Shown: positions 29,515 through 52,367, counted from the first letter of the stretch. The stretch is DNA of 64,000 nt from Acidimicrobiales bacterium (GCA_965262175.1 CBDHES010000002.1:2981490-3045489); one strand, 5' to 3'. Made by a program: numbers and translations. Notes: generated from the sequence alone by a model not told the origin.

Positions 29515-29576
29515 GAGGCTCCCTTCGTTCCCCGCCGGCTCCGCATCGGCCGGCGGGGGTGTCGTGCTGGGTCGGG

Positions 29577-30596
29577 TCAGTCGGGTGGACGGGCGGGCAG
29601 GGTCACGGTGACGCAGGCGCCCCGCGGCTTGTTCGACGTGATGCCGATCGTGCCCCGGTGGCGATCGACGATTCGCTTGCAGATGGCAAGGCCCAACCCG
29701 GCGCCGCCCCCGCCGGTCGGGGCGGAGCCGTCGGCCTGCCAGAACCGCTCGAAGACCCGGGCCTGATCCTGGGGGGCGATCCCGGGTCCGTGATCTCGGA
29801 CCCGGACCATGACGTCGTCGTCCCGTCCCTCCGCTTCGACGACGACCTCGCTCCCCATCGGAGCGAACCGGAGGGCGTTGCCCACAAGGTTGGTGAACAG
29901 CTGGTGGAGGCGGGCCTCGTCGGCCACGACGCCGAGCGGGCCGGCGGTGGTCAGGGTGATCAGCGAGGCCGGGTGGAGCAGCTCGGCCTCGTCGACGACT
30001 TGCTTGAGCACGACGCCGACCGCCACCAACTCGCCCGGCGGGGGCTCGGCCGGGCTCTCCAACCGGCTCAGGTCGAGGAGCTGGGTCACGAGCTTCGACA
30101 GGTGTTCGGCCTGGGCCAGCATGGTGGCCAGCGTCTCGGCGTCGGGCTCGGTCACGTGGTCGACCAGGTTCTCGAGATGGGATCGAAGGGCGGCGACCGG
30201 GGTCCGGAGCTCGTGGGAGGCGTTGGCCACGAACTCCTTCTGGGCCCGGTCGACCTCGGCCAGCTCGGCCGCCATCCGGTTGAACGATTCGGCCAGCTCG
30301 CCGACCTCGTCCCGGCTCGGGACCTCGACCCGCCAGTGGTAGTCACCCTTGGCCATCTGCCGGGCACCCCGGGCCATCTCCCGCAGCGGGGTGGTCAGCC
30401 CGTGGGCCAGGAACTGAACGGCGATCAGGGCCAGTGAGGCCGAGATGATCGGCCGGACCCACACCGGCCAACCGAGCAGGTAGCCGAGCTGGCTCATCAC
30501 CGCGGTCACGGCCACCGCGGCCACGATCACGATCGACCACTTGGTCTTGATGCTGGTCAGCCGATCCAGCGGGCGAGGGCGGCGAAGGTTGCTCAC
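29577..30596 (-). CDS. Sensor histidine kinase (TM-HAMP-HisKA-HATPase)
   Basis: H-box NASHELRTPVAAL, N-box LFTNLVGNALRF, and G-boxes DHGPGI / GGAGLGLAICK. Confidence 0.9.
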   Translation of the reverse strand: MSNLRRPRPLDRLTSIKTKWSIVIVAAVAVTAVMSQLGYLLGWPVWVRPIISASLALIAVQFLAHGLTTPLREMARGARQMAKGDYHWRVEVPSRDEVGELAESFNRMAAELAEVDRAQKEFVANASHELRTPVAALRSHLENLVDHVTEPDAETLATMLAQAEHLSKLVTQLLDLSRLESPAEPPPGELVAVGVVLKQVVDEAELLHPASLITLTTAGPLGVVADEARLHQLFTNLVGNALRFAPMGSEVVVEAEGRDDDVMVRVRDHGPGIAPQDQARVFERFWQADGSAPTGGGGAGLGLAICKRIVDRHRGTIGITSNKPRGACVTVTLPARPPD

Positions 30597-31294
30597 CGGT
30601 CGAGATCACCCAGGCTGTAGCCGATGCCGTGCACCGTGCGGATCAGGTCGTCGCTCGTCTTGCGGCGGATCGAGCGGATGTGGCTGTCGACGGTCCGGGC
30701 CATCGACCCCTCCCGGAAGCCCCAGACCTCCTCCAGCAGCTCGAGCCGGGTCCGGACCGCCCCGTCGGCCCGGTGGAGGGCGGCGAGGAGATCGAACTCG
30801 GTCGGGGTGAGGTGGACCGGACGTGACCGATGGCGGACGAGCCGGCGGTCGAGGTCGACGACCAACTCCTCGTGCTCCGGACGGTCGGCGGCACCGACCG
30901 GTGGTTCGGCGGCCCGACGGAGGACGGCCCGGACCCGGGCGGTGAGCTCCTTCATCGAGAACGGCTTGGTCAGGTAGTCGTCGGCGCCGAGCCCGAGACC
31001 GACGAGGAGGTCGGTCTCGTCATCCCGGGCGGTCAGCATGATGGTCGGGATCCGTCGGGTCCGCTGGAGTCGACGGCACACCTCGAGGCCGTCGAACCCG
31101 GGGAGATTGAGATCGAGCACCACGAGCGCCGGCTGGCGGTCGTCGGCGACCGCCACCGCGGTCGGGCCGTCCGCCGCCCAGAGGGCGTCGTACCCTTCCG
31201 ACCGAAGCCGGGACACCACCGCATCGGCGATGGACCGCTCGTCCTCCACGACCAGGATGGTGCACGAGTCGCCAGCGCGAACCGTTCCACTCAC
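30593..31294 (-). CDS. Response regulator, OmpR/PhoB family
   Basis: ILVVEDE...LVVLDLNLPGFDG...TARDDE receiver domain and a winged-helix C-terminus (LTPTEFDLL...VDSHIRSIRRK). GTG start at 31294. 4-nt overlap with the kinase gene. Confidence 0.88.
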   Translation of the reverse strand: MSGTVRAGDSCTILVVEDERSIADAVVSRLRSEGYDALWAADGPTAVAVADDRQPALVVLDLNLPGFDGLEVCRRLQRTRRIPTIMLTARDDETDLLVGLGLGADDYLTKPFSMKELTARVRAVLRRAAEPPVGAADRPEHEELVVDLDRRLVRHRSRPVHLTPTEFDLLAALHRADGAVRTRLELLEEVWGFREGSMARTVDSHIRSIRRKTSDDLIRTVHGIGYSLGDLDR

Positions 31295-31394
31295 GTTGAC
31301 CAGCGTACGACAGGCGGGCCGGTGGTGTCCCCCGCGGTCTGTGGCCGAATTGTGTGGATTCGGTGCAACTCGTGCCGGTTCGGCCCGGCGGGAC

Positions 31395-32276
31395 ATGATA
31401 GCGAGCATGGCTATCGGACCGACCTGGACGATCGGCGACGTCACCGTCACCAGCATCATCGAGAGCGACCAGCACTGGAAGTGGGCCTGGCTCCTTCCCG
31501 ACGTGACCGACGAGACGGTCGAATCGGTGCCGTGGCTCCGACCCCACTTCGTCGATGAGAAGGGCAAGCTCATCCTTCGCATCCAGGCCCTGGTGGTCCG
31601 ATCCGGTGGACTGACCATCGCGGTCGACACCTGCGTCGGGAACGACAAGGACCGGCCGTCGCCGCTGTTCGACAAGCTCCAGACGTCGTTCCTCGACGAC
31701 CTGACCGGGGCCGGCTACCCACCCGACACCATCGATCGTGTCGTGTGCACCCACCTCCACGTCGACCACGTCGGCTGGAACACCCACCTCGTCGACGGGG
31801 AGTGGATCCCCACGTTCCCCAACGCCCGCTACCTGATGGGCTCGGTCGAGTACGAGCACTGGTCGAACGAGGGGGAGTCGATCTACGGGAACGTGATGGA
31901 GGACTCGGTCGAGCCGGTGCGGGCCGCCGGCCTCGTCGACCTCGTCGACTCCGACCACCGGATCACCGACGAGGTCTGGCTCGAGCCGACCCCGGGCCAC
32001 ACCCCCGGCCATCAGAGCGTCCGGATCTCGTCGGGCGGGGCCGGAGCGGTCATCACCGGCGACATGGTCCACCACCCGATTCAGCTCCACCGGGTCGATC
32101 TCGCCTCCAGCGCCGACATCGACTCGGCGGCCGCGGTGGCGATGCGGCGGGATCGGTTCGCAGCGTGGGCGGCCGACGAGCTGCTGGTGATCGGCACCCA
32201 CTTCGCCGGTCCCGGTGCGGGCCGACTCCGCCCGGTTGGCGACGGCGCCGAGGGCGACTGGTTCTACGACTGCTGA
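31395..32276 (+). CDS. MBL-fold metallo-hydrolase
   Basis: HxHxDH motif (CTHLHVDHVGW), plus TPGHTPGH. The start is ATG 31395 or 31407. The upstream part of ORF 31038 is junk. Confidence 0.8.
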   Translation: MIASMAIGPTWTIGDVTVTSIIESDQHWKWAWLLPDVTDETVESVPWLRPHFVDEKGKLILRIQALVVRSGGLTIAVDTCVGNDKDRPSPLFDKLQTSFLDDLTGAGYPPDTIDRVVCTHLHVDHVGWNTHLVDGEWIPTFPNARYLMGSVEYEHWSNEGESIYGNVMEDSVEPVRAAGLVDLVDSDHRITDEVWLEPTPGHTPGHQSVRISSGGAGAVITGDMVHHPIQLHRVDLASSADIDSAAAVAMRRDRFAAWAADELLVIGTHFAGPGAGRLRPVGDGAEGDWFYDC

Positions 32277-33642: not shown

Positions 33643-34017
33643 ATGGCCGTCATGAGCATCGCCCGCCGGATGTCAGAACCGGTCACGGCCCCGGCCCGCC
33701 GCATCGTCACGCACTATGTCGGCTTCTTCGAGGACCTGATCCACGCCGTCAAGTCCGAGCTGGTCGCCAAGATCGACGGGATCTCGTCCCGCCTCGACGA
33801 TCTCGACCGCTCGGTTGCCACCAGCCACCAGAGCATCTCCGATCAGATCGCGGTCCAGGCCGCGACGATCCGCAACCTCAGCGCCGAGGTCGAGCGACTC
33901 CAAGCTCTCGCCGCCCGCCTCGAAGCGGCCCAGGTGGCGGTCGAGCTCGACGCCGATCGTCGAGCCGAGACCACCATCGACGTCGCCCGAGAGGCCGCCG
34001 CCCCGGTCGGCGCGTGA
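33643..34017 (+). CDS. Small predicted coiled-coil protein, translationally coupled to the glycosyltransferase fusion
   Basis: Heptad-like helical sequence (LVAKIDGISSRLDDLDRSVATSHQSISDQIAVQAATIRNLSAEVERLQALAARLEAAQ). Its stop overlaps GTG 34014 of the next gene (GTGA). Confidence 0.55.
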   Translation: MAVMSIARRMSEPVTAPARRIVTHYVGFFEDLIHAVKSELVAKIDGISSRLDDLDRSVATSHQSISDQIAVQAATIRNLSAEVERLQALAARLEAAQVAVELDADRRAETTIDVAREAAAPVGA

Positions 34018-37000
34018 CCGTCGTCTACGACCTGCTCGGGGTCCAGAGCAGGGACCACGGCGAGCGGGGCATCGCCCGCTACGTCCTCCAGCTCGGGCTG
34101 GCGATCGAGCGCCGGCGGCCGGGCCTGATCGACCAGTTCCTGATGCACCCCGGCCTCCCGCTCCCGGCGAGCGCGGAAGCGTTGATCGCCACCGGCCGGG
34201 TGATCCGGACCGATGAGCGACGACACGAGCGGACCCCGATGGCGGGCGGGGTGTTCATCGCCGGCTCGCCGTTCGAGGCGTTCCACTTCACCTCGGACCA
34301 CATCCTCCCCGACTACGCCCGAGGCCCGGCCTGGCGCCGATTGGCCGTCGTCCACGACGTGATCCCCGGCCTGTTCCCCGAGCTCTACCTGCAGACCATC
34401 GAGAACAAGCACTACTACCAGGCCCGACTGAACGCGCTCCGCAGCTTCGACCGGTTCGTGACCAACTCGGTCGCCACCCTGGACGACACCATCGAGATGC
34501 TCGACCTCGACCGATCAGAGCTGACGGTGATCGGGGGCGGGGCCGACGCCCGGTTCCGACCTCCAGCGGCCGGTCACGAGGCGACGGCGGCCGCCCTGAT
34601 CACCGAGGGCGTCATCGACGGCCTGGCGCCCGAGTACGTGCTGTTCCCGACGGGGATGGACCCCCGCAAGAACATCGAACGGATGATCCACGCCTATGGC
34701 CGGCTCCCGTCCGCGCTCCGCCGACGCCACCAGCTCGTGCTGGTGTGCCGGCTGAGTGAGCCCGACCTGGAGATCGTGATGGGTTGGGCAGCCGAGGCCG
34801 GCCTGGGCGACGAGCTCCTGATCACCGGCTACGTCGACGACGACACGCTGTGCCGCCTCTACCAGGGCGCCCACCTGGTCGTGTTCCCCTCCTACTACGA
34901 GGGGTTCGGCCTCCCGGCGCTCGAGGCCATGCGGTGCGGGGCCCCGGTGATCTGCGCCGACGCCACGTCCCTGATCGAGGTCCAGCCCCTGGCCGAAGCC
35001 CGGTTCGATCCGCTCGACATCGACGACATCGCCGACGCCGTCCGGCGGGCGTTGGCCGACGGGGAGCTCCGGCACCGGCTCCGGACCCAGGAGCTGCCCC
35101 CCTTCACCTGGGAGGTGGCCGCCGACCGGACCGCGGCCGTCGTCGACGAGCTGCTGGCCGAGTTGGACGACCGACGGATCGAGATCGGTCCGGCCAGGCC
35201 GTCGCTGGCGGTGTTCAGCCCGCTGCCCCCGCAGCAGACCCCGGCCGCGTCCTACACCTACCGGATGGTCGAGGCTCTCCGCCGGCGGTGCGACGTCACC
35301 GTGTTCGTCGATACCCACCCCTCACACGTGTGGGCCCCCGAAGGGGTCTCGATCGAGCCGGTCAAGAACTACGGCCCGCTGACCGCCAGCGGCGCCGCGT
35401 TCGACCAGACCCTCTACGTCCTCGGCGACAACCTCCTCCACATCGCCGCCTACCAGGCGCTGCGGGAGCACCCGGGACCGGTCCTGTTCTTCGATCCCCA
35501 GCTCACCGAGCTGTTCGGCGAGGCCCGCCGGGCAGCCCCCGAGCTCCTCCGGGGCCCGACGGTCGGTTCGACGCTGGCCCACCTCTACCCCGGCCGCTAC
35601 CGGGTGGAGGTCGAGGCGATGGAGGCGATCCCGCCGGCGAGCGCCGCCCGGTTCGGGATCCTGATGGCCGCCGAGGCGGCGGAGCTGGCCCGACCGGCGC
35701 TGGCCCACGCCGACCACACCACCCGACTGCTCGCCCTCGACACCGGGGTGGAGGTCGAGCACCTCGGCCCGATCCCGTGCCCCGATGCCGTCGAGCGGGT
35801 GCCACCGCCGGAGCCGACCGACGGGGCAGCGATGATCGTCTCGTTCGGCATGGTGACCCCGGCCCGCCAGCCGGAACGGCTGATCGAAGCGATGACCGCG
35901 GTGCACCGCACGTCGCCGGCGGCCCGGCTCCGGTTCGTGGGCCCCGTCGAGGCCGGCTACCGGGCCGAGCTGGAGCAGCTCATCGTCACCCGCGGTCTGG
36001 GCGACGCCGTCGAGCTGACCGGACCGGTCGACAACCGGACGCTCGGCGTCTTCCAGCGGGAGGCGACGATCGCCGTGCAGCTGACGACGACCGGCGACAC
36101 CGAGACCGCCGCCGAGGTGGCCCAGCTCCTGGCCCTCGGCGTCCCCACCGTCACCACCGGCGCCGGGCCGTTGACCGAGATCCCGGCCGACGCCATCACC
36201 CGCGTCGTCCCCGACGTGGTCGGTGCCGAGCTGGCCGAGACGATCACCGGGCTGCTCCTCGACACCGATCGGCGGAACGAGGTCGTGGCCGCCGGCCTGG
36301 CCTTCGCTCGGTCGACGACGTTCGACGTCGCCGCCGACCGCCTGTTCGAGATCCTCTTCATCGACCCCGAGACCCGACTGGAGGCCGAGATGGACGAGCT
36401 GCTGGCCCCGATCCGTACCGCCCAGGACGAGACCCGACGTGAGCTCGCCGTCGTCCGCAACGGTCAGGCCGCCTACGTCGGCGACGACCAGATCCTCACC
36501 CGGCTGTTCACCGGCCAGAAGATCTTCCTCGACAGCCGCGACATCTCGCTGACGCCGGCCCTCGTCCTCGATGGCCGGTGGGAGCCGGAGACGACCGAGG
36601 TCCTGCTGCGACTCGTCCGTCCGGGCGACACGGTGATCGACATCGGGGCCAACGTCGGCTACTTCGGGATCATCGCCGGGACCCGCCTCGATCGGTCCCA
36701 GGGGGCGTCCATCCATCTCATCGAGGCCAACCCCCGGTTGGCCACGCTGGCCTTCAAGTCGCTCAACGTGACCGGTCTGGTCGGGATGGCCACGGTGACC
36801 AACGCCGCGGTGAGCGACGACGAGGGCCAGCTCGACCTCCACGTGCCCGGATCGGGGCTGTGGGGCAGCGCGTTCATCGATTCGCTCGACGACGTGTTCA
36901 AGACCGAGATCGAGACCGCCTTGGGTGGCGAGCTCCAACTCGACGATGTCGTGTCCGTGCCATCGCTGACCCTCGACGCCTTCACCGAGGCCCGCTCGAT

Positions 37001-37301
37001 CGACCGGGTCGACCTGATCAAGATGGACATCGAGGGCCACGAGGAGAGGGCCTACGGCGGGATGCGACGGGTGATCGAGGCGAACCGCGACCGTCTCCGG
37101 CTGCTGATGGAGTTCTCCGGCGGCCAGTACCAGGACCCGTTCGGGTTCTTCGATGCGATCCGCGACGACTTCAAGCAGGTCGTCATCATCGAGCCCGGCA
37201 CCGGTGAGCTGATCGAGGCCACCAGCTACGCCGACGTCGCGGCCCGGTCCGAACCGGGCTTCGCCATGTTGTTGGCCACCAACTCCGGCCTCCCCAGCTG
37301 A
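34014..37301 (+). CDS. Trifunctional-type glycan synthase: GT4 glycosyltransferase, second GT4-like domain and FkbM-family methyltransferase
   Basis: Domain 1 has an EX7E motif (YYEGFGLPALEAM). Domain 2 has a GT-B-like layout (MIVSFGMVTPARQPERL...LRFVGP...LALGVPTV). The C-terminus has FkbM motifs (VIDIGANVGYFG...IKMDIEGHE). The first 137 codons of ORF 33603 are junk in this frame. Confidence 0.75.
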   Translation: MTVVYDLLGVQSRDHGERGIARYVLQLGLAIERRRPGLIDQFLMHPGLPLPASAEALIATGRVIRTDERRHERTPMAGGVFIAGSPFEAFHFTSDHILPDYARGPAWRRLAVVHDVIPGLFPELYLQTIENKHYYQARLNALRSFDRFVTNSVATLDDTIEMLDLDRSELTVIGGGADARFRPPAAGHEATAAALITEGVIDGLAPEYVLFPTGMDPRKNIERMIHAYGRLPSALRRRHQLVLVCRLSEPDLEIVMGWAAEAGLGDELLITGYVDDDTLCRLYQGAHLVVFPSYYEGFGLPALEAMRCGAPVICADATSLIEVQPLAEARFDPLDIDDIADAVRRALADGELRHRLRTQELPPFTWEVAADRTAAVVDELLAELDDRRIEIGPARPSLAVFSPLPPQQTPAASYTYRMVEALRRRCDVTVFVDTHPSHVWAPEGVSIEPVKNYGPLTASGAAFDQTLYVLGDNLLHIAAYQALREHPGPVLFFDPQLTELFGEARRAAPELLRGPTVGSTLAHLYPGRYRVEVEAMEAIPPASAARFGILMAAEAAELARPALAHADHTTRLLALDTGVEVEHLGPIPCPDAVERVPPPEPTDGAAMIVSFGMVTPARQPERLIEAMTAVHRTSPAARLRFVGPVEAGYRAELEQLIVTRGLGDAVELTGPVDNRTLGVFQREATIAVQLTTTGDTETAAEVAQLLALGVPTVTTGAGPLTEIPADAITRVVPDVVGAELAETITGLLLDTDRRNEVVAAGLAFARSTTFDVAADRLFEILFIDPETRLEAEMDELLAPIRTAQDETRRELAVVRNGQAAYVGDDQILTRLFTGQKIFLDSRDISLTPALVLDGRWEPETTEVLLRLVRPGDTVIDIGANVGYFGIIAGTRLDRSQGASIHLIEANPRLATLAFKSLNVTGLVGMATVTNAAVSDDEGQLDLHVPGSGLWGSAFIDSLDDVFKTEIETALGGELQLDDVVSVPSLTLDAFTEARSIDRVDLIKMDIEGHEERAYGGMRRVIEANRDRLRLLMEFSGGQYQDPFGFFDAIRDDFKQVVIIEPGTGELIEATSYADVAARSEPGFAMLLATNSGLPS

Positions 37302-37329
37302 CCGCCCGATCCGTACCAGGAGACCTACC

Positions 37330-38150
37330 ATGTCGATGGTGACGAACCCCTTGCTCACCTCCCGGATGTGCACCCAGGAGCAGCTCGAATCGCCCCGGTT
37401 CAAGGCGTGGGCCGAGCGGCTCAGCGAGCATCCCGGCCGCCTCCACCGCAAGCTGTGGGAGTACTGCTTCATCGCCGAGGCCCTCGGCGAGCGGGCATGC
37501 TCCAGCCGGGCCGGACCGGCCTCGGGTTCGCGGTGGGTACCGAACCGCTGGCGTCGATGTTCGTTTCGATGGGCTGCACCGTCGTGGCGTCGGACATGGA
37601 CCCCGAGGAAGCGGCGGCCCGGGGCTGGGTCGACACCAACCAGCACGCCGCCGGGATCGATGCGCTGAACCAGCGAGGCCTCTGCCCCGACGCCCTGTTC
37701 CGGACGAACTGCTCGTTCCGGGCGGTCGACATGAACGACATCCCGTCGGACCTGACCGGGTTCGATTTCGTGTGGTCGTCGTGTGCCTTCGAGCATCTCG
37801 GCTCGATCGAGAACGGGATCGAGTTCGTGGTCAACGCCATGAAGTGCCTGAAGCCCGGCGGGATCGCGGTCCACACCACCGAGTTCAACGCCTCATCGAA
37901 CGAGGCGACCCTCACCGAGGGTGGGACGGTGCTGTTCCGCCGCCGGGACTTCGAGGAGATCGCCGATCGTCTGGTCGCTGCCGGTCACGAGATCAGCCTC
38001 GACTTCACCGCCGGTTCGCTCCCCGCCGACCACCACGTCGACCTGCCCCCCTACAAGCAGGACGTGCACCTCAAGCTCCTCCTCGCCGAGTACGTCTGCA
38101 CCTCCTACGGCATCATCGTCAAGGCGGCCGGCGGCCCAGAAACCGAGTAA
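37330..38150 (+). pseudogene. Class I SAM-dependent methyltransferase, apparent -1 frameshift in a G-run at 37493-37495
   Basis: The N-terminus (MCTQEQLESPRFKAWAERL...HRKLWEYCFIAEALGER) is in the frame of ORF 37330. The rest (MLQPGRTGLGFAVGTEPL...DFVWSSCAFEHL) is in the frame of ORF 37368. Adding one G gives ...ALGERGMLQPG.... Confidence 0.6.
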
Positions 38151-38228
38151 CGACCCCGATCGCAGCGAGACGGGCGGCCCTGGCGGGACCGGGACCGGTG
38201 GGCGGCCCGGCTGTCCGGTCCGCTGCGG

Positions 38229-39533
38229 TCAGAGGATCGTCGGGGCCGGCTCGGTGAGGGTGGAATCGAGGCTGGCGGCGAGGTGGACCGGACCGAGGAT
38301 CGGTCGCTCGGTCGAGACCTCGAACCGGATCTGGTTCTGCGACCGGTCGTACTCCCGGGCCTCGGCCGGAGCCTGGAGGGCCACGGTCACCACGTAGGTT
38401 CCGTCGGCGAAGGGGAGGTCGTCGATCTCGAACATCATCTGGCCGCGGGAGCCCGTGGCGTAGACGTCGGTGCCCAGCAGGTCGAGGCTGGAGATGTTGG
38501 CCCAGATCGTCCCGTCGGTCCGATGGATCCACAGGTGGACCCGGAGGGGGACCACTTCACCGATCCCGATGTCGACCCCGACCCGGAGCCGGTCGCCGGC
38601 CTGATGGGCCGGGCGATCGTTGGGCGGCGGCTCGATCCACACCCGCCGGAGGGTGACCGGGGAATCGGCAACCGACCCGACCTCGTTGTCGACGACCGGG
38701 TCGGTGACCGGAGCGTGGCCGTGGGACAGGAGGGAGCGACGGTAGGCGGCGATCGCCTCGTCGACGTCGCCGAGGTGGACCAGCCGGCCGCGGTCGAGGA
38801 CCATCGCCCGATTGCACAGGTTGCGGACCTGCTCCGGGGAGTGGGTGACGAGGCAGATCGTCCGGCCCTCGGCCTGGAACGCCTGGATCCGGCCGATGCA
38901 CTTGGCCTGGAAGGCCTCGTCGCCGACGGCCAGGACCTCGTCGATGAGGAGCACGTCGGGTTCGAGGTTGACCGCCACGGCGAACCCGAGACGGGCGTAC
39001 ATCCCCGAGCTGTAGTGCTTGACCTGGGAGTCGATGAAGTCCTCGAGCCCGGCAAAGGCCACGATGTCATCGAAGATCTCATCGATCCGGGCCCGGGAGA
39101 AGCCGAGGATCGACCCGTTGAGGTAGACGTTCTCCCGGCCGGTCAGGTCGGGATGGAAGCCGGCCCCCAACTCGAGGAGGGCCGACAACCGGCCCCGGAC
39201 CCTCACGATCCCCTGGCTGGGGCGGATCGTGCCGGCGATGCACTTCAACAGGGTGCTCTTCCCGGAGCCGTTGTGACCGAGGATGCCGAAGGTCTCACCG
39301 GCCCGAACCTCGAAGTCGACGTCTCGGAGCGCGTGGAAGTCGGCCACGGTCGACTGCCGGAGGGTGAGGAGCCGTTCCTTGAGGGTCTTGGCCGGCTCGG
39401 AGTGCTTGCGGAACGTCTTGGAGACGTCGGACACCTCGATGGCGACCGGGGCCAACTCGACGCTGACGGTGAGGCTCGGGTCGGGCTCGGGCTCGCTCCC
39501 GGTCCCGGGCTCGACGGGAGGTGACATGGTCAC
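38229..39533 (-). CDS. wzt: Polysaccharide ABC exporter ATP-binding protein with a C-terminal glycan-binding-type domain
   Basis: Walker A GHNGSGKST, signature YSSGMYARLGFA, Walker B VLLIDEVLAVGD. About 160 aa of beta-rich C-terminal extension follow, which is Wzt_C-like. Confidence 0.85.
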   Translation of the reverse strand: MTMSPPVEPGTGSEPEPDPSLTVSVELAPVAIEVSDVSKTFRKHSEPAKTLKERLLTLRQSTVADFHALRDVDFEVRAGETFGILGHNGSGKSTLLKCIAGTIRPSQGIVRVRGRLSALLELGAGFHPDLTGRENVYLNGSILGFSRARIDEIFDDIVAFAGLEDFIDSQVKHYSSGMYARLGFAVAVNLEPDVLLIDEVLAVGDEAFQAKCIGRIQAFQAEGRTICLVTHSPEQVRNLCNRAMVLDRGRLVHLGDVDEAIAAYRRSLLSHGHAPVTDPVVDNEVGSVADSPVTLRRVWIEPPPNDRPAHQAGDRLRVGVDIGIGEVVPLRVHLWIHRTDGTIWANISSLDLLGTDVYATGSRGQMMFEIDDLPFADGTYVVTVALQAPAEAREYDRSQNQIRFEVSTERPILGPVHLAASLDSTLTEPAPTIL

Positions 39534-40447
39534 AGCTCTTCACCCAGGTTGGCTTCGAGGCGGACGAAGACGCGGAATCCGAGGTAGAGGAAGACCAGAC
39601 CGAACAGGAACGAGATGCCCAGGTTCTGGACGTACCACCAGGTGGGGCGGAACAGCAGCTCGAACTCGGCCTGCTGGTCGGGCCCGAAGTTGGACGGGTT
39701 GTAGACCACCCGCTGGAAGGTGGTGACGACGGGGATCATCGGGTTCAGCATCGCCAACCGCTCGGCACCGGGCCCCCATCGCCCGATCAGGGCTTCGCCG
39801 ACGAAGTCATAGACGTAGACGATCGGGGTGAACCAGAACCAGGTCAGGAGGCCGAGCTCCAGGAAGTGCTGGACGTCTCGGTAGTGCACGTTCAGGCCCG
39901 ACAGGAGCAGACCGAGACCGGTCACGAGCATGAGCGTGACGACCAGGGCCGGGATCGTCAGCCAGAGCATGCCCCACTCGGGCGACTGGCGGAAGAACGC
40001 CAAGCCGACCAGCAGGATCGTGAGCTGGAAGAAGAAGGTGATCAGGTTGGCCCCGATCGCCGCCAAGGGGAGGATCTCGCGGGGGAACCAGACCTTTTGG
40101 ACGAGCGGCCCGTTGGCCGTGATCGAGGTGGTCGCCGCGCTGAGCCCCGACGAGAAGAGGTTGAACGCCAGCAGCCCGGAGAGCAGGAGCAGGCCATAGC
40201 GGGGGACGTTGGCCCGGAGGATGATGTCGAACACGACGCTGAACACCATCAGGTACAGCAGCGGGTTGAGGAGTGTCCACAGGAAGCCGAGGATGCTGTC
40301 CTTGTACTTGACCTTCAGCTCCCGGCGCACGAGGTTGACCAGCAGCTCCCGGTACGTCCAGATGTCGCGAAGCCGGGAGGCCACGTCGGGAGGCCTCGTA
40401 CCGTTCTCCAGCAGTGGCGGGAGGTCCGTGTCACGGATCGCAGTCAC
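39530..40447 (-). CDS. wzm: ABC-2 type polysaccharide exporter permease
   Basis: RELKVKYKDSILGFLWTLLNPLL N-terminal motif and 6 TM segments. ATGA overlap with wzt. Confidence 0.85.
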   Translation of the reverse strand: MTAIRDTDLPPLLENGTRPPDVASRLRDIWTYRELLVNLVRRELKVKYKDSILGFLWTLLNPLLYLMVFSVVFDIILRANVPRYGLLLLSGLLAFNLFSSGLSAATTSITANGPLVQKVWFPREILPLAAIGANLITFFFQLTILLVGLAFFRQSPEWGMLWLTIPALVVTLMLVTGLGLLLSGLNVHYRDVQHFLELGLLTWFWFTPIVYVYDFVGEALIGRWGPGAERLAMLNPMIPVVTTFQRVVYNPSNFGPDQQAEFELLFRPTWWYVQNLGISFLFGLVFLYLGFRVFVRLEANLGEEL

Positions 40448-40551
40448 CTGTCGAGTCTAGCGACCGGCCGCAACCGGTCCGGGGCAGCCCGCCATAGGCA
40501 ACGGCGCCCCTCCCAGAGCGGCCAGCGACGTCCACCGGGTCGACGCCGGTG

Positions 40552-41649
40552 TCATCGCTTCTGGGCCCGCCAGTTGGCCGCCGCCTCCTCGGCGTCGACG
40601 AACGGGCCGTCGACCGCGTACCCCAGGTCGGCCAGTACCCGGCGATGGGTCACCGCCAGCCGCTCCGCCACCGGGCGGGGGAGGAAGTCGCGCCAGCCGT
40701 CGGCCTTGCTCCGCCACCGGTGATGGTTCGGCGTTCCGACGAGGGTCCGCTCCCGGACGCCGTCGGGGTCGACCGGTTCGCCCAGCAGCTCGTCGGTCGC
40801 CTCCGGGACGACGATCCCCAGGTCGTCGGCCAGCTTGGCCACGACCGGCCCGGTGCTGGCGATGAGGTCCTCGTAGCGGATCCGGTACGTGGCGGGGTCG
40901 TTCCACCAGTCGGCGGTGATGGCCAGCAGCCGGGACGCCCCGCTGCCGGTCGCCCACTCGACGAACTGCTCGCTGGTCGGGCTGGCCCCCCGCAGCGTCG
41001 TCGGGGAGCCGATCGCCTCGCCGTCGAGCCAGTCGAGGATCTGCGGTTCGTGCCGGCTGAAATGGAGGATCGAGATCACCACGTCGAGGGGGTGGCGGGC
41101 GACGGTCACGACCCGGGCCGACAGACGATCGACGAACTGGAGGGCCCGGCGATTGCGGACGGCGTGGATCTGCATGAGGACCGGGGCGGTCACCAGCTCG
41201 GTCGCCACATCGTCGATCGTCGGCGCCGCCAGCACCGGGTAGCCGAACACCTCGTGGAAGAGCCGCTGGAGCAGGGTGTTGCCCGACCGGGGCGCCGAGG
41301 TGAGCAGGACGTTGGGTCGGCCGGTGAGCGGTCGGGCCCGGTCGACGACGAAGGCCCGGTGGTAGTCGTTCCGCAGGGTGGCGGCCAGGGTCCGGTACAG
41401 GTCGGCCTGTGCCGGGGCCGCCTCATCGATCAGCCGTCCCTCGATCAACGAGGCCAGCTCCATGGCCCGGACCCGACGCCGACCCGGCATCGACACCATC
41501 AGCGCCTGGAGGGCGTCGGTGACCAGCGCATCGTCGACACCGGCGGCAGCGATCGTCTCGGGCCAGTGGTGGCGACGGGCGAAATCGGCGAGATCGAGCT
41601 CTCGGCGGGACGGCCGGGAGCTGGGGCGCTTGGCGGCGGGGCGCTTCAT
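40552..41649 (-). CDS. Sulfotransferase family protein
   Basis: A 5-prime PSB-like loop (LTSAPRSGNTLLQRL) and a 3-prime PB-like motif (VARHPLDVVIS). It lies upstream of wzm-wzt on the same strand. Confidence 0.6.
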   Translation of the reverse strand: MKRPAAKRPSSRPSRRELDLADFARRHHWPETIAAAGVDDALVTDALQALMVSMPGRRRVRAMELASLIEGRLIDEAAPAQADLYRTLAATLRNDYHRAFVVDRARPLTGRPNVLLTSAPRSGNTLLQRLFHEVFGYPVLAAPTIDDVATELVTAPVLMQIHAVRNRRALQFVDRLSARVVTVARHPLDVVISILHFSRHEPQILDWLDGEAIGSPTTLRGASPTSEQFVEWATGSGASRLLAITADWWNDPATYRIRYEDLIASTGPVVAKLADDLGIVVPEATDELLGEPVDPDGVRERTLVGTPNHHRWRSKADGWRDFLPRPVAERLAVTHRRVLADLGYAVDGPFVDAEEAAANWRAQKR

Positions 41650-41765: not shown

Positions 41766-42530
41766 TCAGGTCCGTTCGTAGACCCAGCCACCCGGATCGA
41801 GGGTGAGCCGGTTGCGGGGCCCGGCGACGCCCGGGTCTTGCTGGTCGTAGCCGGCGTCGCCACCCCAGGCCAGGATGACCGGGTCGGCGGCGATGGGGCG
41901 GGTGAAGAACTCCTCGGGTTCGGCCGAGGAGGCCCAACCGAGCGCTGCGTCGACCGATCGGTGGGTGTCGAGCTGCCACAGTGTCAGCCACGTCGGCGGG
42001 ACGATCTCGATCTCCGAGCCCCGATGCCGATCGATGGCGTCCCCCGGCCGGAACCACCGGTGCTCGTGGATCTCACCGCCGTCGACCGAGACCTCGCCGT
42101 CGGGGCATCGTCCGACGAAGAACCAGGTGGAGAACCGCTTGACCCGGTTCCCCTTCATCGCCGCCCGGGGCGGGGGAACCCAGTACGACCAGGTGAACAG
42201 CTCGCCACCGTCGATCTCCAGGCCGGTCTCCTCCGCCACCTCCCGGGCCGCGGCCCGGCGGGCCGATCCCAGGTGGTCGTCGTGGTCCAGTTCGTCGTCG
42301 TCGACTCGACCGCCGGGGAAGACCCACATCCCACCGAAGGCGATCTTCGAGTTGCGACGCAACATGAGCACCTCGGGTCCGTCGTCGTGGTCGCGCAGCA
42401 GGAGCACGGTGGCGGCTGGGATCAGGACGTCGTCGTCGGTCACGGGGACCAACGGTACGGCGGCCCAGGGAACGTCGCCAAGCTCGGCCGACCCTCGAGG
42501 GGAGGATGGGGTCGGCCGAGCTCGGGACAT
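41766..42530 (-). CDS. NUDIX hydrolase
   Basis: Nudix box GGRVDDDE...AAREVAEETGL. The start is at MSRARPT (42530). Confidence 0.8.
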   Translation of the reverse strand: MSRARPTPSSPRGSAELGDVPWAAVPLVPVTDDDVLIPAATVLLLRDHDDGPEVLMLRRNSKIAFGGMWVFPGGRVDDDELDHDDHLGSARRAAAREVAEETGLEIDGGELFTWSYWVPPPRAAMKGNRVKRFSTWFFVGRCPDGEVSVDGGEIHEHRWFRPGDAIDRHRGSEIEIVPPTWLTLWQLDTHRSVDAALGWASSAEPEEFFTRPIAADPVILAWGGDAGYDQQDPGVAGPRNRLTLDPGGWVYERT

Positions 42531-42724
42531 GGGGGGGGTGGGGTGGGACGGCGATTGCCAGGGCGCCGGCACGAGGCCGGTGGCGATGCGTGTGGAGGAG
42601 GTGACAACCACCGCCCCACCCCGGTTTGGCCGGTGAGGGTGATGATCACCGGTCTCAGTAGCATCGTCAGGCGGCGCTCGAAACTTGAGTCGGTCGATCT
42701 ATCCCGAACCCGAAGGACGGGCCG

Positions 42725-42956: not shown

Positions 42957-45305
42957 CTAGAACTCGCCGGGATCAGCGCCCGATCCACCGCCGTCCGGCG
43001 TCGAGCGGGCCATGTTGTCGAACCGGGTGTACTGGCCCCGGAACGCCAAGCGGACCTTCCCGGTCGGGCCGTTCCGGTGTTTGGCGATGATCACCTCGGC
43101 GACGCCCTTGTCGGGCGAGGCCTCGTCGTACACCTCGTCTCGATAGAGGAACAGCACCACGTCGGCGTCCTGTTCGAGGCTGTTGTGGGCGATGATGCCG
43201 TTGGCGACGAAGTTGTGATCGCCCTCGACGGTGCAGTCGAACACCGGTTGCTCACCGAGCGGCTCGATGGAGACGATCTCGTCCCAGAAGATGTCCGACT
43301 CGGCCACCCGGTGGGGTATGGGGTCGAGGTTCGGGGTCGGCGTCGTCGATTCCAGGATGCGGATCGCCTCGGGCAGGACCGAGCCCCGCTCACCATGACA
43401 GCCGACCGTCGTCGCGAACCGGAGCAGGTCGGCGTGGCTCCACACCCGGACGTGGTGGGCCGGCCGATGGCCGGCGTCGGACGATGACGAGATGGTCGTC
43501 CCGATACCCAGCCGGAGGAGCAGGCGCTGCACCCCCCGAGCCATGGGCTCCGAGGTCGTCGAGTACGAGCACTCGACCGTCGGACCCCGCCCGTTGCATG
43601 AGATCGTGATCGAGCCCCCGGTCGCCCACAAGTGGTGGAGGAAGAGCCGGATCTGATCGTTGGGAAGGCGGTGGACGTCGGTCGGGATGTGATGCTCGCA
43701 GGGTCGCTTCCCCCCCGCCTCGACCACCGAACCATCGCCGAGGAGTTGGGCCAACAGCACGACCTCGGGATCCGGCCACGCCACCGGCTCGCTCGGCTCG
43801 GGCTCCACCCGAGGGGTGGCGACCGCACCGCCGACGGACAACTCGTCGAGACGGGCCCATCCGCCGATCGTCAGGAAGCGGTGGTTGGCGGTGGCGTCGA
43901 CCTCACGACCGGACGCGAGGCGGAGCCGGTAGACGGGCTTGATCCCCGATCCGAAGGTCTTGACGAGACGACGGGCGCCGAGCCGACCGCGGTCGTCGAT
44001 CGCCCAGACCATCGGGGTCTCCTGGCTCAGGAGGAGGTCGCCCATCGTCACCTCCGACCCGTCGGCCCGAGCGATCCGGGTCGACGCTGGCATGCAGCCG
44101 CTCTCACGGAGGTCGGAGAGCATCGGCCGCTTGTCGGTTCGTTGCTCCAGGCCACGGTTGAGCTGGGCGAGGGCGACGACGGGAACCTCGAGCTCACGGG
44201 CCAGGATCTTGAGGTTTCGGCTGATCTCCGAGACCTCGACCTGGCGGCTCTCGGCGTTGGATCGACCGGTCATCAGCTGGATGTAGTCGATGACCACCAT
44301 CCCCAGCTCCCCGTGGCGGCTCTTGAGCCGCCGGGACTTGGCCCGGATGTCCATGACCGAGGTGTGGGGGTAGTCGTCGATGAAGATCGGTGCCTCGGCC
44401 AGACGACCGACGGCGTGGCTGATCCGGCTCCACTCCCCTTCCTCCAGCCGACCGGTCTTGACCCGGCCGGCATCGACGAGGGCCTCGGAGCACAGCAGCC
44501 GCTGCGACAGCTCGAGCTGGCCCATCTCCAAGGTGAAGATCAGCACCGGCTTGTCGTCGTTCATCGCCGAGTGGGACGCCAACCCGAGGGCGAACGACGT
44601 CTTACCCATGGCGGGCCGGGCACCGACGACGTAGAGGGCGTTCGGCTGGAGACCGGCCAGCTTCTCGTCGAGGTCGAGGTAGCCGGTGCTGAGCCCGGTG
44701 ATGGCCTCGCCCCGGTCATAGAGCATCTCGATCCGGTCGAGGTTGGCCGGGAGCAGGTCGCGAATGGGGGCGGTGGTGTCGCTGACCCGCCGTTGGGCGA
44801 CGTCGAACATCCGGGCCTCCGCGTCGTCGACCGCGGTCTCGACGTCCTCCGGGACGCCATAAGCGGTCTCGGCGATCTCGTTGCAGACCGAGATCATCCG
44901 CCGGAGGAGGGCGTGCTCCTCGACGATGCGGGCGTAGTGGGCGGCGTTGCTGATGGCCGGTGTCGTGGCCTGGAGGTCGAGCAGCACCTCCGGCCCACCG
45001 ATCTCGTCGAGCAGGCCGGCCCGCTTCAGTTCGTCGGCCACGGTGACCGCGTCGACGGGCTCGCCACTGCTGTACAGGCTCATCACCGCGTCGTACAGGT
45101 GCCCGTGAGCCGGCTTGTAGAAGTGGTCGGGATCGAGGATCTCGACGACGTCGGCGATGGCGTCGCGGCTCAGCAGCATCGCACCGAGGACCGACTCCTC
45201 GGCCTGGAGGTTGTGGGGCGGAACCCTCGCTGGCCCGCTCGGGCGGGAACCGTCCGTCATCCCCTCATCCTGTTCGCTCGGGGCTGTGGACAACCAGGCC
45301 GACAA
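42957..45305 (-). CDS. dnaB: Replicative DNA helicase DnaB, interrupted by an intein
   Basis: N-terminus PHNLQAEESVLGAMLLS, Walker A GARPAMGKTSFAL, Walker B MVVIDYIQLM. The sequence ...LSDLRESG is followed by a 305-aa insert and then SLEQDADVVLFLYRDE. Confidence 0.95.
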   Translation of the reverse strand: MSAWLSTAPSEQDEGMTDGSRPSGPARVPPHNLQAEESVLGAMLLSRDAIADVVEILDPDHFYKPAHGHLYDAVMSLYSSGEPVDAVTVADELKRAGLLDEIGGPEVLLDLQATTPAISNAAHYARIVEEHALLRRMISVCNEIAETAYGVPEDVETAVDDAEARMFDVAQRRVSDTTAPIRDLLPANLDRIEMLYDRGEAITGLSTGYLDLDEKLAGLQPNALYVVGARPAMGKTSFALGLASHSAMNDDKPVLIFTLEMGQLELSQRLLCSEALVDAGRVKTGRLEEGEWSRISHAVGRLAEAPIFIDDYPHTSVMDIRAKSRRLKSRHGELGMVVIDYIQLMTGRSNAESRQVEVSEISRNLKILARELEVPVVALAQLNRGLEQRTDKRPMLSDLRESGCMPASTRIARADGSEVTMGDLLLSQETPMVWAIDDRGRLGARRLVKTFGSGIKPVYRLRLASGREVDATANHRFLTIGGWARLDELSVGGAVATPRVEPEPSEPVAWPDPEVVLLAQLLGDGSVVEAGGKRPCEHHIPTDVHRLPNDQIRLFLHHLWATGGSITISCNGRGPTVECSYSTTSEPMARGVQRLLLRLGIGTTISSSSDAGHRPAHHVRVWSHADLLRFATTVGCHGERGSVLPEAIRILESTTPTPNLDPIPHRVAESDIFWDEIVSIEPLGEQPVFDCTVEGDHNFVANGIIAHNSLEQDADVVLFLYRDEVYDEASPDKGVAEVIIAKHRNGPTGKVRLAFRGQYTRFDNMARSTPDGGGSGADPGEF
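43182..44096 (-). mobile_element. DnaB intein (305 aa) with a degenerate LAGLIDADG homing-endonuclease remnant
   Basis: It starts with Cys (RESG|CMPASTRI), has block B TANHRFLT, and ends VANGIIAHN|S. LLAQLLGDGSV and FLHHLWATGGSI are LAGLIDADG-like motifs. Coordinates were derived by codon counting and checked against TGC at 44096 and AAC at 43184-43182. Confidence 0.9.
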
Positions 45306-45443: not shown

Positions 45444-45890
45444 TCAGGCGGGAACGACCGACACCGAGACCGGGAACTGCACCTCGTTGTGCGGCTTGAC
45501 CGTGACGGCGTGCATGCCGGTCGAACGGATCTGGTCATCGAGCTCGATCATCTTCCGATCGAGCTCGACGCCGGTCTGATCGCGGATGGCGTCGGCAACG
45601 TCGGCGTTGGTGACCGAGCCGAACAACTTGCCCTCGCCACCGGCCCGAGCCGAGATCTCGACCGTCTTGGCCACGAGGACCTTGGCGATCTCCTCGGCTG
45701 CCTCTCGTTCTCGGGCATTGCGGATCTGCCACGACTTCTTCATCGCCGCCGCCTGCGCTTCCACGCCCGGGCTGGCCTGCTGGGCACGCCCCTGGGGAAT
45801 GAGGAAGTTGCGGGCGTGGCCATCGGCCACGTCGACGATGTCGCCCCGGTTGCCGAGGCCGTTGATCGATTCGAGAAGAACGATGCGCAT
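45444..45890 (-). CDS. rplI: 50S ribosomal protein L9
   Basis: [36 protein letters not shown]. Confidence 0.95.
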   Translation of the reverse strand: MRIVLLESINGLGNRGDIVDVADGHARNFLIPQGRAQQASPGVEAQAAAMKKSWQIRNAREREAAEEIAKVLVAKTVEISARAGGEGKLFGSVTNADVADAIRDQTGVELDRKMIELDDQIRSTGMHAVTVKPHNEVQFPVSVSVVPA

Positions 45891-46360
45891 CAGGCCTCCA
45901 CCGCCTCCCGGTCGCCGGTCGTCTCGGCGGCCTCGGCCGGGGCCTCGGAGCGCGGCGACTCGTTGGTCGAGCTGTCGCCGCCGCGATCACCGCGATCACC
46001 CCGATCGCCGCGATCACCGCGATCGCCGCGGTCACCGCGGTCCCCGCGGTCGCCACGATCACCGTCGTCACGGCGGTTGCCCCGCCGCTGGGTGGTCACC
46101 CGGCTGGTGTAGGGCAGGAGGCCCATCTCCCGGGCGTTCTTGATGGCTCGGGCCACCTCCCGCTGCTGCTGGGAGTCGTTGCCCGACACCCGTCGGGACC
46201 GAATCTTGGCCCGGTCCGACATGAAACGCTTGAGAAGGTCGACGTCTTTGTAGTCGACGTAGGTGACGCTGTCGGTCACCAGAGGACTGATCTTCTTCTT
46301 CGGCTTGCGGCCGTTGTCCTTGGGCTTGGTCCGCTTGCGTGAGTTGCTGCTCTTGGCCAT
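45890..46360 (-). CDS. rpsR: 30S ribosomal protein S18 with a ~65-aa C-terminal (GDR)9/acidic extension
   Basis: The S18 core reads [51 protein letters not shown]. It is followed by RRDD(GDR)9GGDSS...EAVEA. Confidence 0.9.
45983..46063 (-). repeat. In-frame 9-nt tandem repeat, 9 units, encoding (Gly-Asp-Arg)9 in rpsR
   Basis: The plus strand reads gcgatcacc gcgatcacc ccgatcgcc gcgatcacc gcgatcgcc gcggtcacc gcggtcccc gcggtcgcc acgatcacc. Confidence 0.9.
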
Positions 46361-46363
46361 GGC

Positions 46364-51939: not shown

Positions 51940-51989
51940 GGCACCGTGTTGTGGCGTTCGAAGGGGGGCGGGGGGACGGGTGGTGGACG

Positions 51990-52367
51990 TCAACCGGTGA
52001 CGGCGTAGGACTCCCGGAGGTGGTTCCACCAGCACTGGCGACAGACCTCGATCTCGTAACAGGTAGCTGGCCGGCCCCGACGGCGCAGCTTTCGCTTCTC
52101 GGCCGAATCGGCCACGACCCTGCCCTGTTTGGGCAGGCCGGGGCCGAAGGCGAACGTCACCGACACGAGATCTCCACCGTCGCAGATCGGACACGGCTCA
52201 TCGATCGGGGTGGCGCAGGTGTGCGCCACCCGCCGGAGCTCCGGTTGGGCGTCGCAGACCTCTTCGGTCGACGCCCGGCCCCGGGTGAAAGCGTCGACGA
52301 CGTGTTGTCGGGCCAGCCGGTAGCTGACGACGCCCGCCGTGGACGGTGAGTCACGAGCCGTGGTCAC
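51990..52367 (-). CDS. DUF5318-like Cys-rich small protein
   Basis: CDAQPELRRVAH...CPICDGG...EVCRQCWWNHL. The start is uncertain (GTG 52367, GTG 52418 or ATG 52469). Confidence 0.6.
   Translation of the reverse strand: MTTARDSPSTAGVVSYRLARQHVVDAFTRGRASTEEVCDAQPELRRVAHTCATPIDEPCPICDGGDLVSVTFAFGPGLPKQGRVVADSAEKRKLRRRGRPATCYEIEVCRQCWWNHLRESYAVTG

Follow-up and report, generated by a model that had tools for sequence, protein, structure and literature searches.

A compact convergent locus for synthesis and ABC-transporter-dependent export of a probably capped glycan in an Acidimicrobiales actinobacterium

The logic of capped glycans, and the fusion of a polymerase to a chain terminator, both have precedent (PMC11231755). 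The polymannose O-antigen systems of E. coli O8/O9a and K. pneumoniae O3/O5 consist of WbdA, WbdD, Wzm and a Wzt that has a carbohydrate-binding domain, and for the cap in E. coli O9a a kinase and a methyltransferase are both required (PMC3482155). It has been generalized that the terminator sits in the protein carrying the coiled-coil ruler, and in every characterised terminator a long coiled coil separates the methyltransferase from the polymerase (PMC11231755). The P. syringae TET operon and the P. aeruginosa CPA locus are built from wzm, wzt, a wbdD-like methyltransferase and wbdA/wbpX with two GT4 domains, and the TET precedent includes GT-methyltransferase fusions (PMC7820976). WsaE, from a Gram-positive Wzm/Wzt pathway, combines a methyltransferase with two glycosyltransferase domains and a 2-O-methyl cap is formed (PMC2943079). 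K. pneumoniae O12 WbbB and O7 ORF6 each unite terminator and polymerase, and the carbohydrate-binding module of Wzt gates export (PMC11231755), and the equivalent domain of the Aquifex exporter reads 3-O-methyl sugars, mannose or rhamnose caps (PMC9445017).

Here we describe a locus at positions 33643-41649 of a 64-kb stretch of DNA (the window) that we take, with a probability of roughly 75%, to be a compact ABC-transporter-dependent capped-glycan locus of a monoderm Acidimicrobiales actinobacterium, in which functions for transport, elongation and termination are brought together. It is a real but ordinary system, a rearrangement of the pathway that is familiar from Gram-negative O-antigens, and the TET operon of P. 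syringae, Geobacillus WsaE and K. pneumoniae O7/O12 are its precedents. All of the genes listed in the original prediction were found, each named gene is backed by third-position GC, and the domain calls hold in Pfam, where Glycos_transf_1, Methyltransf_21, ABC2_membrane and Sulfotransfer_1 were recovered along with Wzt_C, the last below its cutoff; the domain identities are established. The absence from view of a priming transferase or ligase was borne out as well: no domain of a primer, an LCP ligase or an O-antigen ligase was found in the whole 64 kb, nor any sugar-nucleotide gene. Like the O8/O9a-type loci, this one has a putative dual-GT4 polymerase, a candidate SAM methyltransferase terminator, a coiled-coil component and, presumably, a primer encoded outside the locus. 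It differs in that the methyltransferase is of the FkbM type and is fused to the polymerase rather than to the coiled coil, which is a separate 124-aa protein, in that there is a sulfotransferase and no kinase, and in that its host, a monoderm actinobacterium, has no LPS. With TET and CPA it shares the same four-part gene content; these, however, are single operons in diderms with an LPS-attached product, whereas the arms here are convergent, and neither a separate coiled-coil protein nor a sulfotransferase has been reported there.

The central gene of the plus-strand arm (34014-37301) encodes a 1095-aa GT4-GT4-FkbM fusion, a candidate polymerase joined to a candidate chain-terminating O-methyltransferase, and its GTG start overlaps the stop of the small upstream ORF (GTGA). 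Glycos_transf_1 matches in two stretches (E 6.5e-40), as does Glyco_trans_1_4, marking two GT4 (GT-B) modules in the one polypeptide. Module 1 (34014-35168, approximately residues 1-385, with Glycos_transf_1 at 206-358) matches GT4 enzymes in the PDB by sequence, such as MshA and 6KIH, and in a 40-sequence alignment its EX7E motif (E296...E304) and R218-K219-N220 are invariant. Module 2 (35196-36353, approximately residues 395-780) contains the second Glycos_transf_1 stretch, Glyco_trans_1_2 at 621-766 and an EpsE-like NCBIfam match at 544-762. It is more divergent, with a degenerate EX7E equivalent ('DTETAAEVAQ' here vs a family consensus of 'GESSAAVAE') whose second Glu is not conserved; lacking the canonical motif, module 2 might be non-catalytic. 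The FkbM SAM methyltransferase domain (36561-37298, approximately residues 850-1095) is recognized by PF05050 at residues 876-1050 (52.9 bits, cutoff 22.7) and by TIGR01444 fkbM_fam (67.5 bits, cutoff 37.7), and carries the SAM-binding glycine motif 'VIDIGANVGYFG'. Approximately 22 full-length fusions and more than 90 unfused GT4-GT4 proteins were found among the homologs.

The analogy to WsaE that had been drawn for this protein is apt, given that the published composition is the same (PMC2943079): in a Gram-positive host a single polypeptide contains a capping methyltransferase and two GT modules, and a methyl-capped S-layer glycan is exported by an ABC transporter. Compared by description, the methyltransferase of WsaE is N-terminal and that of the present fusion C-terminal (PMC2943079), and the Geobacillus locus includes, in addition, rml genes and those for the primer WsaP and the O-oligosaccharyltransferase WsaB, none of which are in the window. 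WbbB and ORF6 likewise have terminator and polymerase in one chain, but their GT families and cap chemistries are others (Kdo; methyl-phosphate) and a long intrachain coiled coil separates the two activities, whereas here the linker between polymerase and FkbM is short, without a long coiled coil, and the coiled-coil protein has a gene of its own.

This separate protein (33643-34017, plus strand, 124 aa; its ORF is supported by the GC3 frame) has only weak matches of the coiled-coil type in Pfam. Heptad and amphipathicity analysis identified a conserved amphipathic N-terminal motif at approximately residues 17-37, and residues 28-120 form a helical stretch without Pro and, except for G46, without Gly. 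Orthologs lie upstream of the GT4-GT4 gene in seven loci (L001, L002, L003, L006, L086, L087 and L088), and the protein shares homology with the N-terminal parts of DUF268 and FkbM methyltransferases. The module is rare, with 24 relatives among 1.84 billion representative sequences; nine of these are longer and carry the module N-terminally, and all six of the nine to which Pfam can give a name are methyltransferases. A family that occurs either free-standing or as the N-terminus of a methyltransferase is a new finding of the present analysis. The original prediction was correct as to the presence of the protein and missed its significance as a member of a rare, methyltransferase-linked family. 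The placement of terminator and ruler in one polypeptide is not seen in the window, with FkbM on the polymerase and the coiled coil apart, and is seen in three relatives: in L008 the module is fused directly to FkbM, and in L004 and L005 to a DUF268 methyltransferase immediately upstream of GT4-GT4. In L003, FkbM is an unfused, separate gene adjoining the GT4-GT4 gene.

The plus arm ends with a second methyltransferase, of class I (Methyltransf_11), at 37330-38150, where frame analysis, Pfam, orthologs and DNA alignment show a disrupted gene. It had been described as an intact 260-aa ORF from 37368, which is wrong: the true start is the ATG at 37330 and the frame shifts at 37493-37495, where one nucleotide is deleted from a run of G (GAGCG-GGCATG in the window vs GAGCG(G/A)GG(C/A)ATG in three orthologs). 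The repaired 273-aa sequence gives a single alignment of approximately 268 residues to intact orthologs, at 61-85% identity; these are 268-269 aa in L001 and L086, and L088 and L003 have matches that read as intact. The gene is either a pseudogene or the site of a sequencing error, and translation from an in-frame ATG at 37497 could still yield 217 aa.

Between the arms is a 78-bp convergent gap (38151-38228, assigned to neither strand) with a GC-rich hairpin (dG -55.5 kcal/mol, z -2.4; 4 of 200 shuffles were equally stable). No canonical U-tailed terminator was found in this gap, and the hairpin is possibly a bidirectional terminator, on weak evidence. The convergent orientation makes a single transcript impossible and the hairpin separates the arms, so that one might regard them as unrelated neighbours, the plus arm producing a cytoplasmic or otherwise unrelated glycoconjugate and Wzm/Wzt exporting something else. 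We consider this very improbable, and it is largely refuted already by synteny. Approximately 10 related loci in Acidimicrobiales, located at two distinct chromosomal sites, keep both arms together, and wherever the flanking sequence of a related locus is long enough the GT4-GT4 gene is beside a cap-binding Wzt, at 41-60% identity and at no fewer than two sites; the same gene content is, moreover, one operon in P. syringae (PMC7820976). The whole locus is found in identical order in L001 and L086 (56-60% identity). Larger versions, with Gmd/Rmd-like genes and extra GT4s, occupy the other site beside MeaB in L087 and L088; MCM/MeaB lies close to L005 too, and the neighbourhood of L004 is different again. 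Gmd/Rmd-like genes occur in CPA loci as well, and those of L087 and L088 would be consistent with a mannan or rhamnan-type polymer. The arrangement is more than chance, since relatives with as little as 41% identity, and loci at two sites, show the convergent layout again. The predicted relationship between the two arms is upheld by conserved synteny and by the patterns of gene fusion and fission in relatives, both established here.

Wzm (39530-40447, minus strand, 305 aa) and Wzt (38229-39533, minus strand, 434 aa), whose genes overlap by 4 bp, are a typical glycan exporter pair, an ABC-2 permease with an ATPase of the Wzt/TagH clade. Wzm scores 55.4 bits against ABC2_membrane (cutoff 26.9), and orthologs of 65-84% identity adjoin wzt in 7 related loci. 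The Wzt ATPase (approximately residues 30-270, ABC_tran) has the Aquifex O-antigen Wzt as its closest match among PDB sequences (8DKU, E 2e-57; range for 8DKU/6AMX 2e-57 to 5e-58), and an AlphaFold model of full-length Wzt (pLDDT 87.8) has full-length Aquifex Wzt as its best Foldseek matches. The mycobacterial galactan exporter (NF050108/NF050109) was rejected as an assignment, with 161.4 bits vs an NCBIfam equivalog cutoff of 400 for Wzt and 60.1 vs 380 for Wzm; the matched mycobacterial Wzt chains, of 259-263 residues, align over the ATPase domain alone and appear to have no C-terminal domain.

Such a domain is present here (38232-38666, minus strand, approximately residues 290-434), and its anticipated identity as a Wzt_C-type carbohydrate-binding beta-sandwich was confirmed by structural modelling. 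The Pfam score for Wzt_C (PF14524) is 23.8 bits, under the cutoff of 30.4 (E 5e-5, profile positions 49-141), and most homologs have a precomputed match to this family. The sequence profile of the domain matches the Aquifex carbohydrate-binding domain (8DKY/6O14) with E 7.5e-7. Modelled alone (AlphaFold pLDDT 92.8), the domain has as its 17 best PDB matches in Foldseek only Wzt carbohydrate-binding domains (TM 0.65-0.75), with 5HNO/5HNP, 8DKY/6O14 and 2R5O (TM 0.69 for this last, O9a-type fold) spanning Klebsiella O12, Aquifex and E. coli O9a; the next structural class begins at E 3.9e-4. The fold is established, and the Aquifex aeolicus exporter is the closest solved relative for both the ATPase and this domain (TM 0.73-0.75 for the latter). 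Identity in the domain is nevertheless only approximately 20%, and the methyl-pocket residues of Aquifex are not conserved, with Trp362 aligning with the Arg of a family 'EYDR' motif and His355 likewise unconserved.

The lack of conservation in this pocket would be in keeping with a scheme in which there is no capping and the methyltransferases decorate the whole chain, producing a polymethylated polysaccharide of which the Wzt domain reads features of the repeat unit. The methyltransferases found in each locus are indeed unusually many and varied (FkbM, a second FkbM, Methyltransf_11, DUF268), and the CPA methyltransferases of P. aeruginosa do not act as classical chain-length terminators (PMC3560663). 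We nonetheless judge whole-chain methylation unlikely: the characterised Wzt proteins that share this C-terminal fold all recognise a terminal modification (PMC11231755, PMC9445017), and, as in terminators, there is a physical link between the methyltransferase and either the polymerase or the coiled-coil module.

The remaining gene of the minus arm encodes a 365-aa sulfotransferase (40552-41649, minus strand; Sulfotransfer_1 30.0 bits, cutoff 22) with a lineage-specific N-terminal extension of approximately 105 aa. Its PAPS-binding motifs (5'-PSB, 3'-PB) are kept, PRSGNT (120-125), RHPLDV..S (185-193) and H162 all being invariant. It might be imagined that this enzyme provides the export signal, with the terminal sugar sulfated, alone or together with methylation, and Wzt reading the sulfate, which would be a new terminator chemistry. 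The intact motifs, the position of the gene, on the strand of wzm and immediately before it, its synteny in L001, L003 and L086, the isolated two-gene island that it forms with a CC-FkbM protein in L008 and the two-enzyme precedent of the O9a cap (PMC3482155) are all in favour. Yet a comparison of 11 related loci finds the gene in only 4, and L002, L004, L005, L087 and L088 have none while retaining polymerase, methyltransferase and cap-binding Wzt. The sequences of the cap-binding domains do not track its presence: no residue is specific to the sulfotransferase-bearing loci, and the domain from L088 is 51% identical to that of the window, as close as those of L001 and L086. Distant relatives of the sulfotransferase sit outside glycan loci, and no paper in the literature searched ties sulfation to chain termination. 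We thus regard a sulfate signal as quite improbable; the sulfotransferase named in the original prediction is present with its PAPS motifs intact, but the evidence for its tie to the glycan system is weak, a point that the prediction overlooked.

Returning to the capped-glycan reading, we infer both that the glycan is capped and the identity of the cap, and in what follows the donor sugar, the function of the coiled coil and the place where the glycan ends up are likewise put forward conditionally. The candidates for a chain terminator encoded alongside the polymerase are the FkbM domain, the frameshifted Methyltransf_11 gene and the sulfotransferase. A lipid-linked primer would be made by an enzyme encoded elsewhere and extended at the cytoplasmic face by the two GT4 modules, probably from GDP-mannose or a GDP-6-deoxyhexose. 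O-methylation of the non-reducing terminal sugar by the attached FkbM domain would then stop growth, with the small coiled-coil protein perhaps oligomerising, tethering or spacing the complex in the manner of the coiled coil of WbdD-type terminators. As its fold suggests, the C-terminal domain of Wzt would bind the finished end and so license export through Wzm/Wzt, after which enzymes encoded elsewhere would attach the glycan to a wall, lipid or protein acceptor. Additional decorations are most likely the work of the second methyltransferase, broken here, and of the sulfotransferase.

A bolder proposal, which we hold only tentatively and think unlikely to be correct in full, is that the 124-aa protein is a detachable adaptor or ruler, carried or borrowed by FkbM and DUF268 terminators, that in this lineage the terminator has moved onto the polymerase, and that, through the co-travelling sulfotransferase, the wall glycan of a monoderm actinobacterium bears a chain end that is both sulfated and methylated. 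If this were so, the separate ruler would break the rule by which a single polypeptide holds both terminator and ruler, and the sulfated and methylated chain end would be a terminator chemistry not yet described.

The G+C content of the window is ∼71%, so that raw ORF lists are mostly noise; real reading frames were picked by third-position GC, which backs every gene named in the original prediction. On the + strand a small coiled-coil protein of 124 aa (33643-34017) precedes a 1095-aa protein (34014-37301) whose GTG start overlaps the stop of the small ORF, and the - strand carries wzt (38229-39533), wzm (39530-40447, with a 4-bp overlap with wzt) and, upstream of wzm, a sulfotransferase gene (40552-41649). 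Pfam returned the families that had been anticipated, namely two Glycos_transf_1 stretches and Methyltransf_21/FkbM in the 1095-aa protein (fkbM_fam is also supported by NCBIfam), ABC_tran in Wzt, ABC2_membrane in Wzm and Sulfotransfer_1 in the sulfotransferase, with Wzt_C sub-threshold. When the locus was scanned for promoter and terminator consensus sequences, no match rose above the level expected from shuffled sequence.

The same set of genes recurs in related loci. Two of these, L001 and L086 (56-60% identity), have a gene order identical to that of the window and occupy the same dnaB-proximal site, as does a third, L003, in which FkbM is unfused. L087 and L088 adjoin MeaB and contain extra Gmd/Rmd-like genes, three more GT4s and a second FkbM, and L004 and L005 include further glycosyltransferases, with sugar-nucleotide genes in L004. 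In every related locus with enough flank the cap-binding Wzt is convergent to or beside the GT4-GT4 arm, a synteny that links the two arms. In its larger versions the locus has Amidase_2 and SpoIID proteins that carry DUF4214 domains at its flanks (L087 1-2853, L088 1-2923, L005 19431-22331), neighbors that may point to a connection with peptidoglycan remodelling or wall attachment.

It is at the C-terminal module of Wzt that the original prediction was most exposed to refutation. The nucleotide-binding domain is closest to that of the Aquifex aeolicus O-antigen Wzt (E 2e-57), and the full-length model, built on a 116-sequence alignment, is confident, with residues 290-434 all-beta at pLDDT >90. 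Because nucleotide-binding-domain matches dominated the full-length fold search, leaving the C-terminus without an independent test, residues 285-434 were modelled alone (pLDDT 92.8, pTM 0.86). The best 17 PDB matches to this domain-only model are all Wzt carbohydrate-binding domains (TM 0.65-0.75), from Klebsiella/Raoultella O12 (5HNO/5HNP), Aquifex (8DKY, 6O14 and full-length chains) and E. coli O9a (2R5O), with generic beta-sandwiches behind them by a >10-fold drop in E-value. When only the domain was used as a sequence profile, the isolated Aquifex carbohydrate-binding domain was matched at E 7.5e-7. Together the fold and profile matches confirm the Wzt_C-type beta-sandwich, a putative cap-binding module. 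The residues forming the methyl pocket in Aquifex, Leu300, Thr346, Ala348, Trp362 and the trap-loop His355 (PMC9445017), are not conserved, and Trp362 aligns with the Arg of the 'EYDR' motif found in the family of the window Wzt.

The 1095-aa protein has ∼22 full-length fusion homologs at 48-71% identity and >90 unfused GT4-GT4 homologs, each of ∼780 aa; where source names are given they are Acidimicrobiales, Ilumatobacteraceae, Actinomycetia/Actinomycetes and Actinomycetota, and the placement in Acidimicrobiales was drawn from such homolog names. Its first GT4 module retains an invariant EX7E motif (E296...E304) and R218-K219, the second is more divergent and is missing the second Glu of EX7E, and the FkbM domain has the glycine-rich SAM motif. 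In L003 FkbM is a separate gene directly after GT4-GT4, so the window protein arose by fusion of neighboring genes. A Pfam GT4-conflict match (35 bits) was discounted as generic similarity among GT4s, and the locus bears no other sign of a defence system.

A second class I methyltransferase, originally read as an intact ORF at 37368-38150 on the + strand, is indeed present, but the gene is frameshifted. Its N-terminal 55 codons, from an ATG at 37330, lie in one frame, and the remainder, including the SAM-binding region, lies in the frame of the 37368-38150 ORF. The G run at 37493-37495 has one base more in 3 orthologs than in the window, and the repaired 273-aa protein aligns with intact orthologs in one unbroken segment, at 61-85% identity; the gene is intact in L001 and L086. 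Either the frameshift is genuine and the gene a pseudogene, or the homopolymer was misread in sequencing, and an ATG at 37497 could still give a truncated product.

The 124-aa protein begins with a conserved amphipathic motif, followed by ∼90 residues with heptad-like spacing that contain no Pro and, except for G46, no Gly. Orthologs precede the GT4-GT4 gene in 7 related loci, in several with a 4-bp overlap, and the protein is homologous to the N-terminal ∼90 residues of the DUF268 methyltransferases encoded at this upstream position in L004 and L005. L008 encodes a direct fusion of the module to an FkbM methyltransferase. Only 24 relatives came out of an exhaustive HMMER search over 1.84 billion representatives, including 14 short stand-alone proteins, 9 of 270-405 aa with the module N-terminal and one generic coiled-coil false positive; Pfam can name 6 of the longer proteins, and all 6 are methyltransferases. 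For WbdD, WbbB and K. pneumoniae O4/O7 it is established that a coiled coil carries the terminator (PMC11231755), and by analogy the pairing of coiled coil and methyltransferase matches this idea. The twist in the window is that the putative terminator has moved onto the polymerase with the coiled coil kept separate. Across the Acidimicrobiales family polymerase, methyltransferase and coiled coil occur in four different covalent arrangements.

The sulfotransferase, also assigned to the glycan system in the original prediction, is its least secure member. The 5'-PSB and 3'-PB motifs and His162 are invariant. In favor of membership, the gene shares its strand with wzm, which it precedes, and is syntenic in L001, L003 and L086, and in L008 (9833-11843) a 264-aa homolog without the N-terminal extension is convergent with the 393-aa coiled-coil-FkbM protein, a pair that stands alone among housekeeping genes, with neither polymerase nor exporter in the surrounding ∼6-10 kb. 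Against it, the gene is missing from 5 related loci in which the polymerase, a methyltransferase and Wzt are all retained, and among the loci compared no residue of the Wzt carbohydrate-binding domain tracks its presence. The latter result argues against a sulfate-reading Wzt domain; the domain of L088, a locus without the sulfotransferase, is as close to that of the window as are those of L001 and L086. Given the evidence against membership, a methyl cap is more likely than sulfate to be the export signal, with sulfation an accessory decoration. Also counting against membership, the family is tiny, with 9 close relatives, and none of the 3 distant relatives checked lies in a glycan-locus setting. 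Several distant homologs (P0250, P0254, P0258, P0271) have a coiled-coil-like C-terminal extension reminiscent of terminator architecture, in non-glycan neighborhoods. A literature search found nothing linking sulfation to chain termination.

The locus is flanked on one side by a luciferase-like monooxygenase gene and on the other by NUDIX, intein-bearing dnaB, rplI, rpsR, ssb and rpsF. The NUDIX hydrolase (281 aa, 41766-42611, -) lies between sulfotransferase and dnaB in all dnaB-site loci and may be either a member of the glycan system, for example in nucleotide-sugar or PAP hydrolysis, or chromosomal backbone. DnaB (42957-45305, -) is interrupted by an intein that includes a homing-endonuclease domain of the LAGLIDADG type (Intein_splicing 80.8 bits, LAGLIDADG_3 58.1 bits); the intein is found also in L001 and L086 and is missing from the 465-aa DnaB of L003. 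The ribosomal protein S18 homolog (45890-46363, -) ends in a tail of ∼8 tandem 'GDR' repeats and an acidic segment. Upstream of the locus lie a DUF4153 membrane protein and, after it, a histidine kinase with its response regulator (27937-31714, -), an arrangement conserved in L086 (3086-6481). Housekeeping genes make up the remainder of the window: two-component systems, methylmalonyl-CoA mutase with MeaB, branched-chain keto-acid dehydrogenase, sigma factors, trxBA and a class A PBP (Transgly and Transpeptidase, 49276-52194, -) with long low-complexity end tails (Thr/Pro-rich, 'NEGNQGNEG' and 'GGDGGGGDGGGG'). As originally noted for priming transferase and ligase, no primer, LCP ligase or O-antigen ligase is found across the 64-kb window, nor is a nucleotide-sugar gene, and scans of its full length for Rfam families and tRNAs found none.

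The locus is thus a real, conserved system, a variant of a well-known pathway type, and its reading as one that assembles and exports a capped glycan is supported. It has the same gene content as the E. coli O8/O9a system and the P. syringae TET operon, where glycosyltransferase-methyltransferase fusions have already been reported, and Geobacillus WsaE provides a Gram-positive precedent; NCBIfam scores rule out a mycobacterial galactan exporter. Practical significance is modest, as the pathway type is well known and is not contradicted by the locus. What is understood of chain-length control and export gating of ABC-dependent glycans comes almost entirely from Proteobacteria, where under the current rule a coiled-coil ruler protein bears the terminator. 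Of most interest is how coiled-coil, polymerase and methyltransferase modules have been shuffled, rather than the fusion itself. Since the same three modules occur in four covalent arrangements, the family might be used as a natural experiment to ask if a terminator needs to include the coiled coil. Our literature search found no glycan-locus study on such loci in Acidimicrobiia, and the locus points to an uncharacterised envelope glycan in these organisms.
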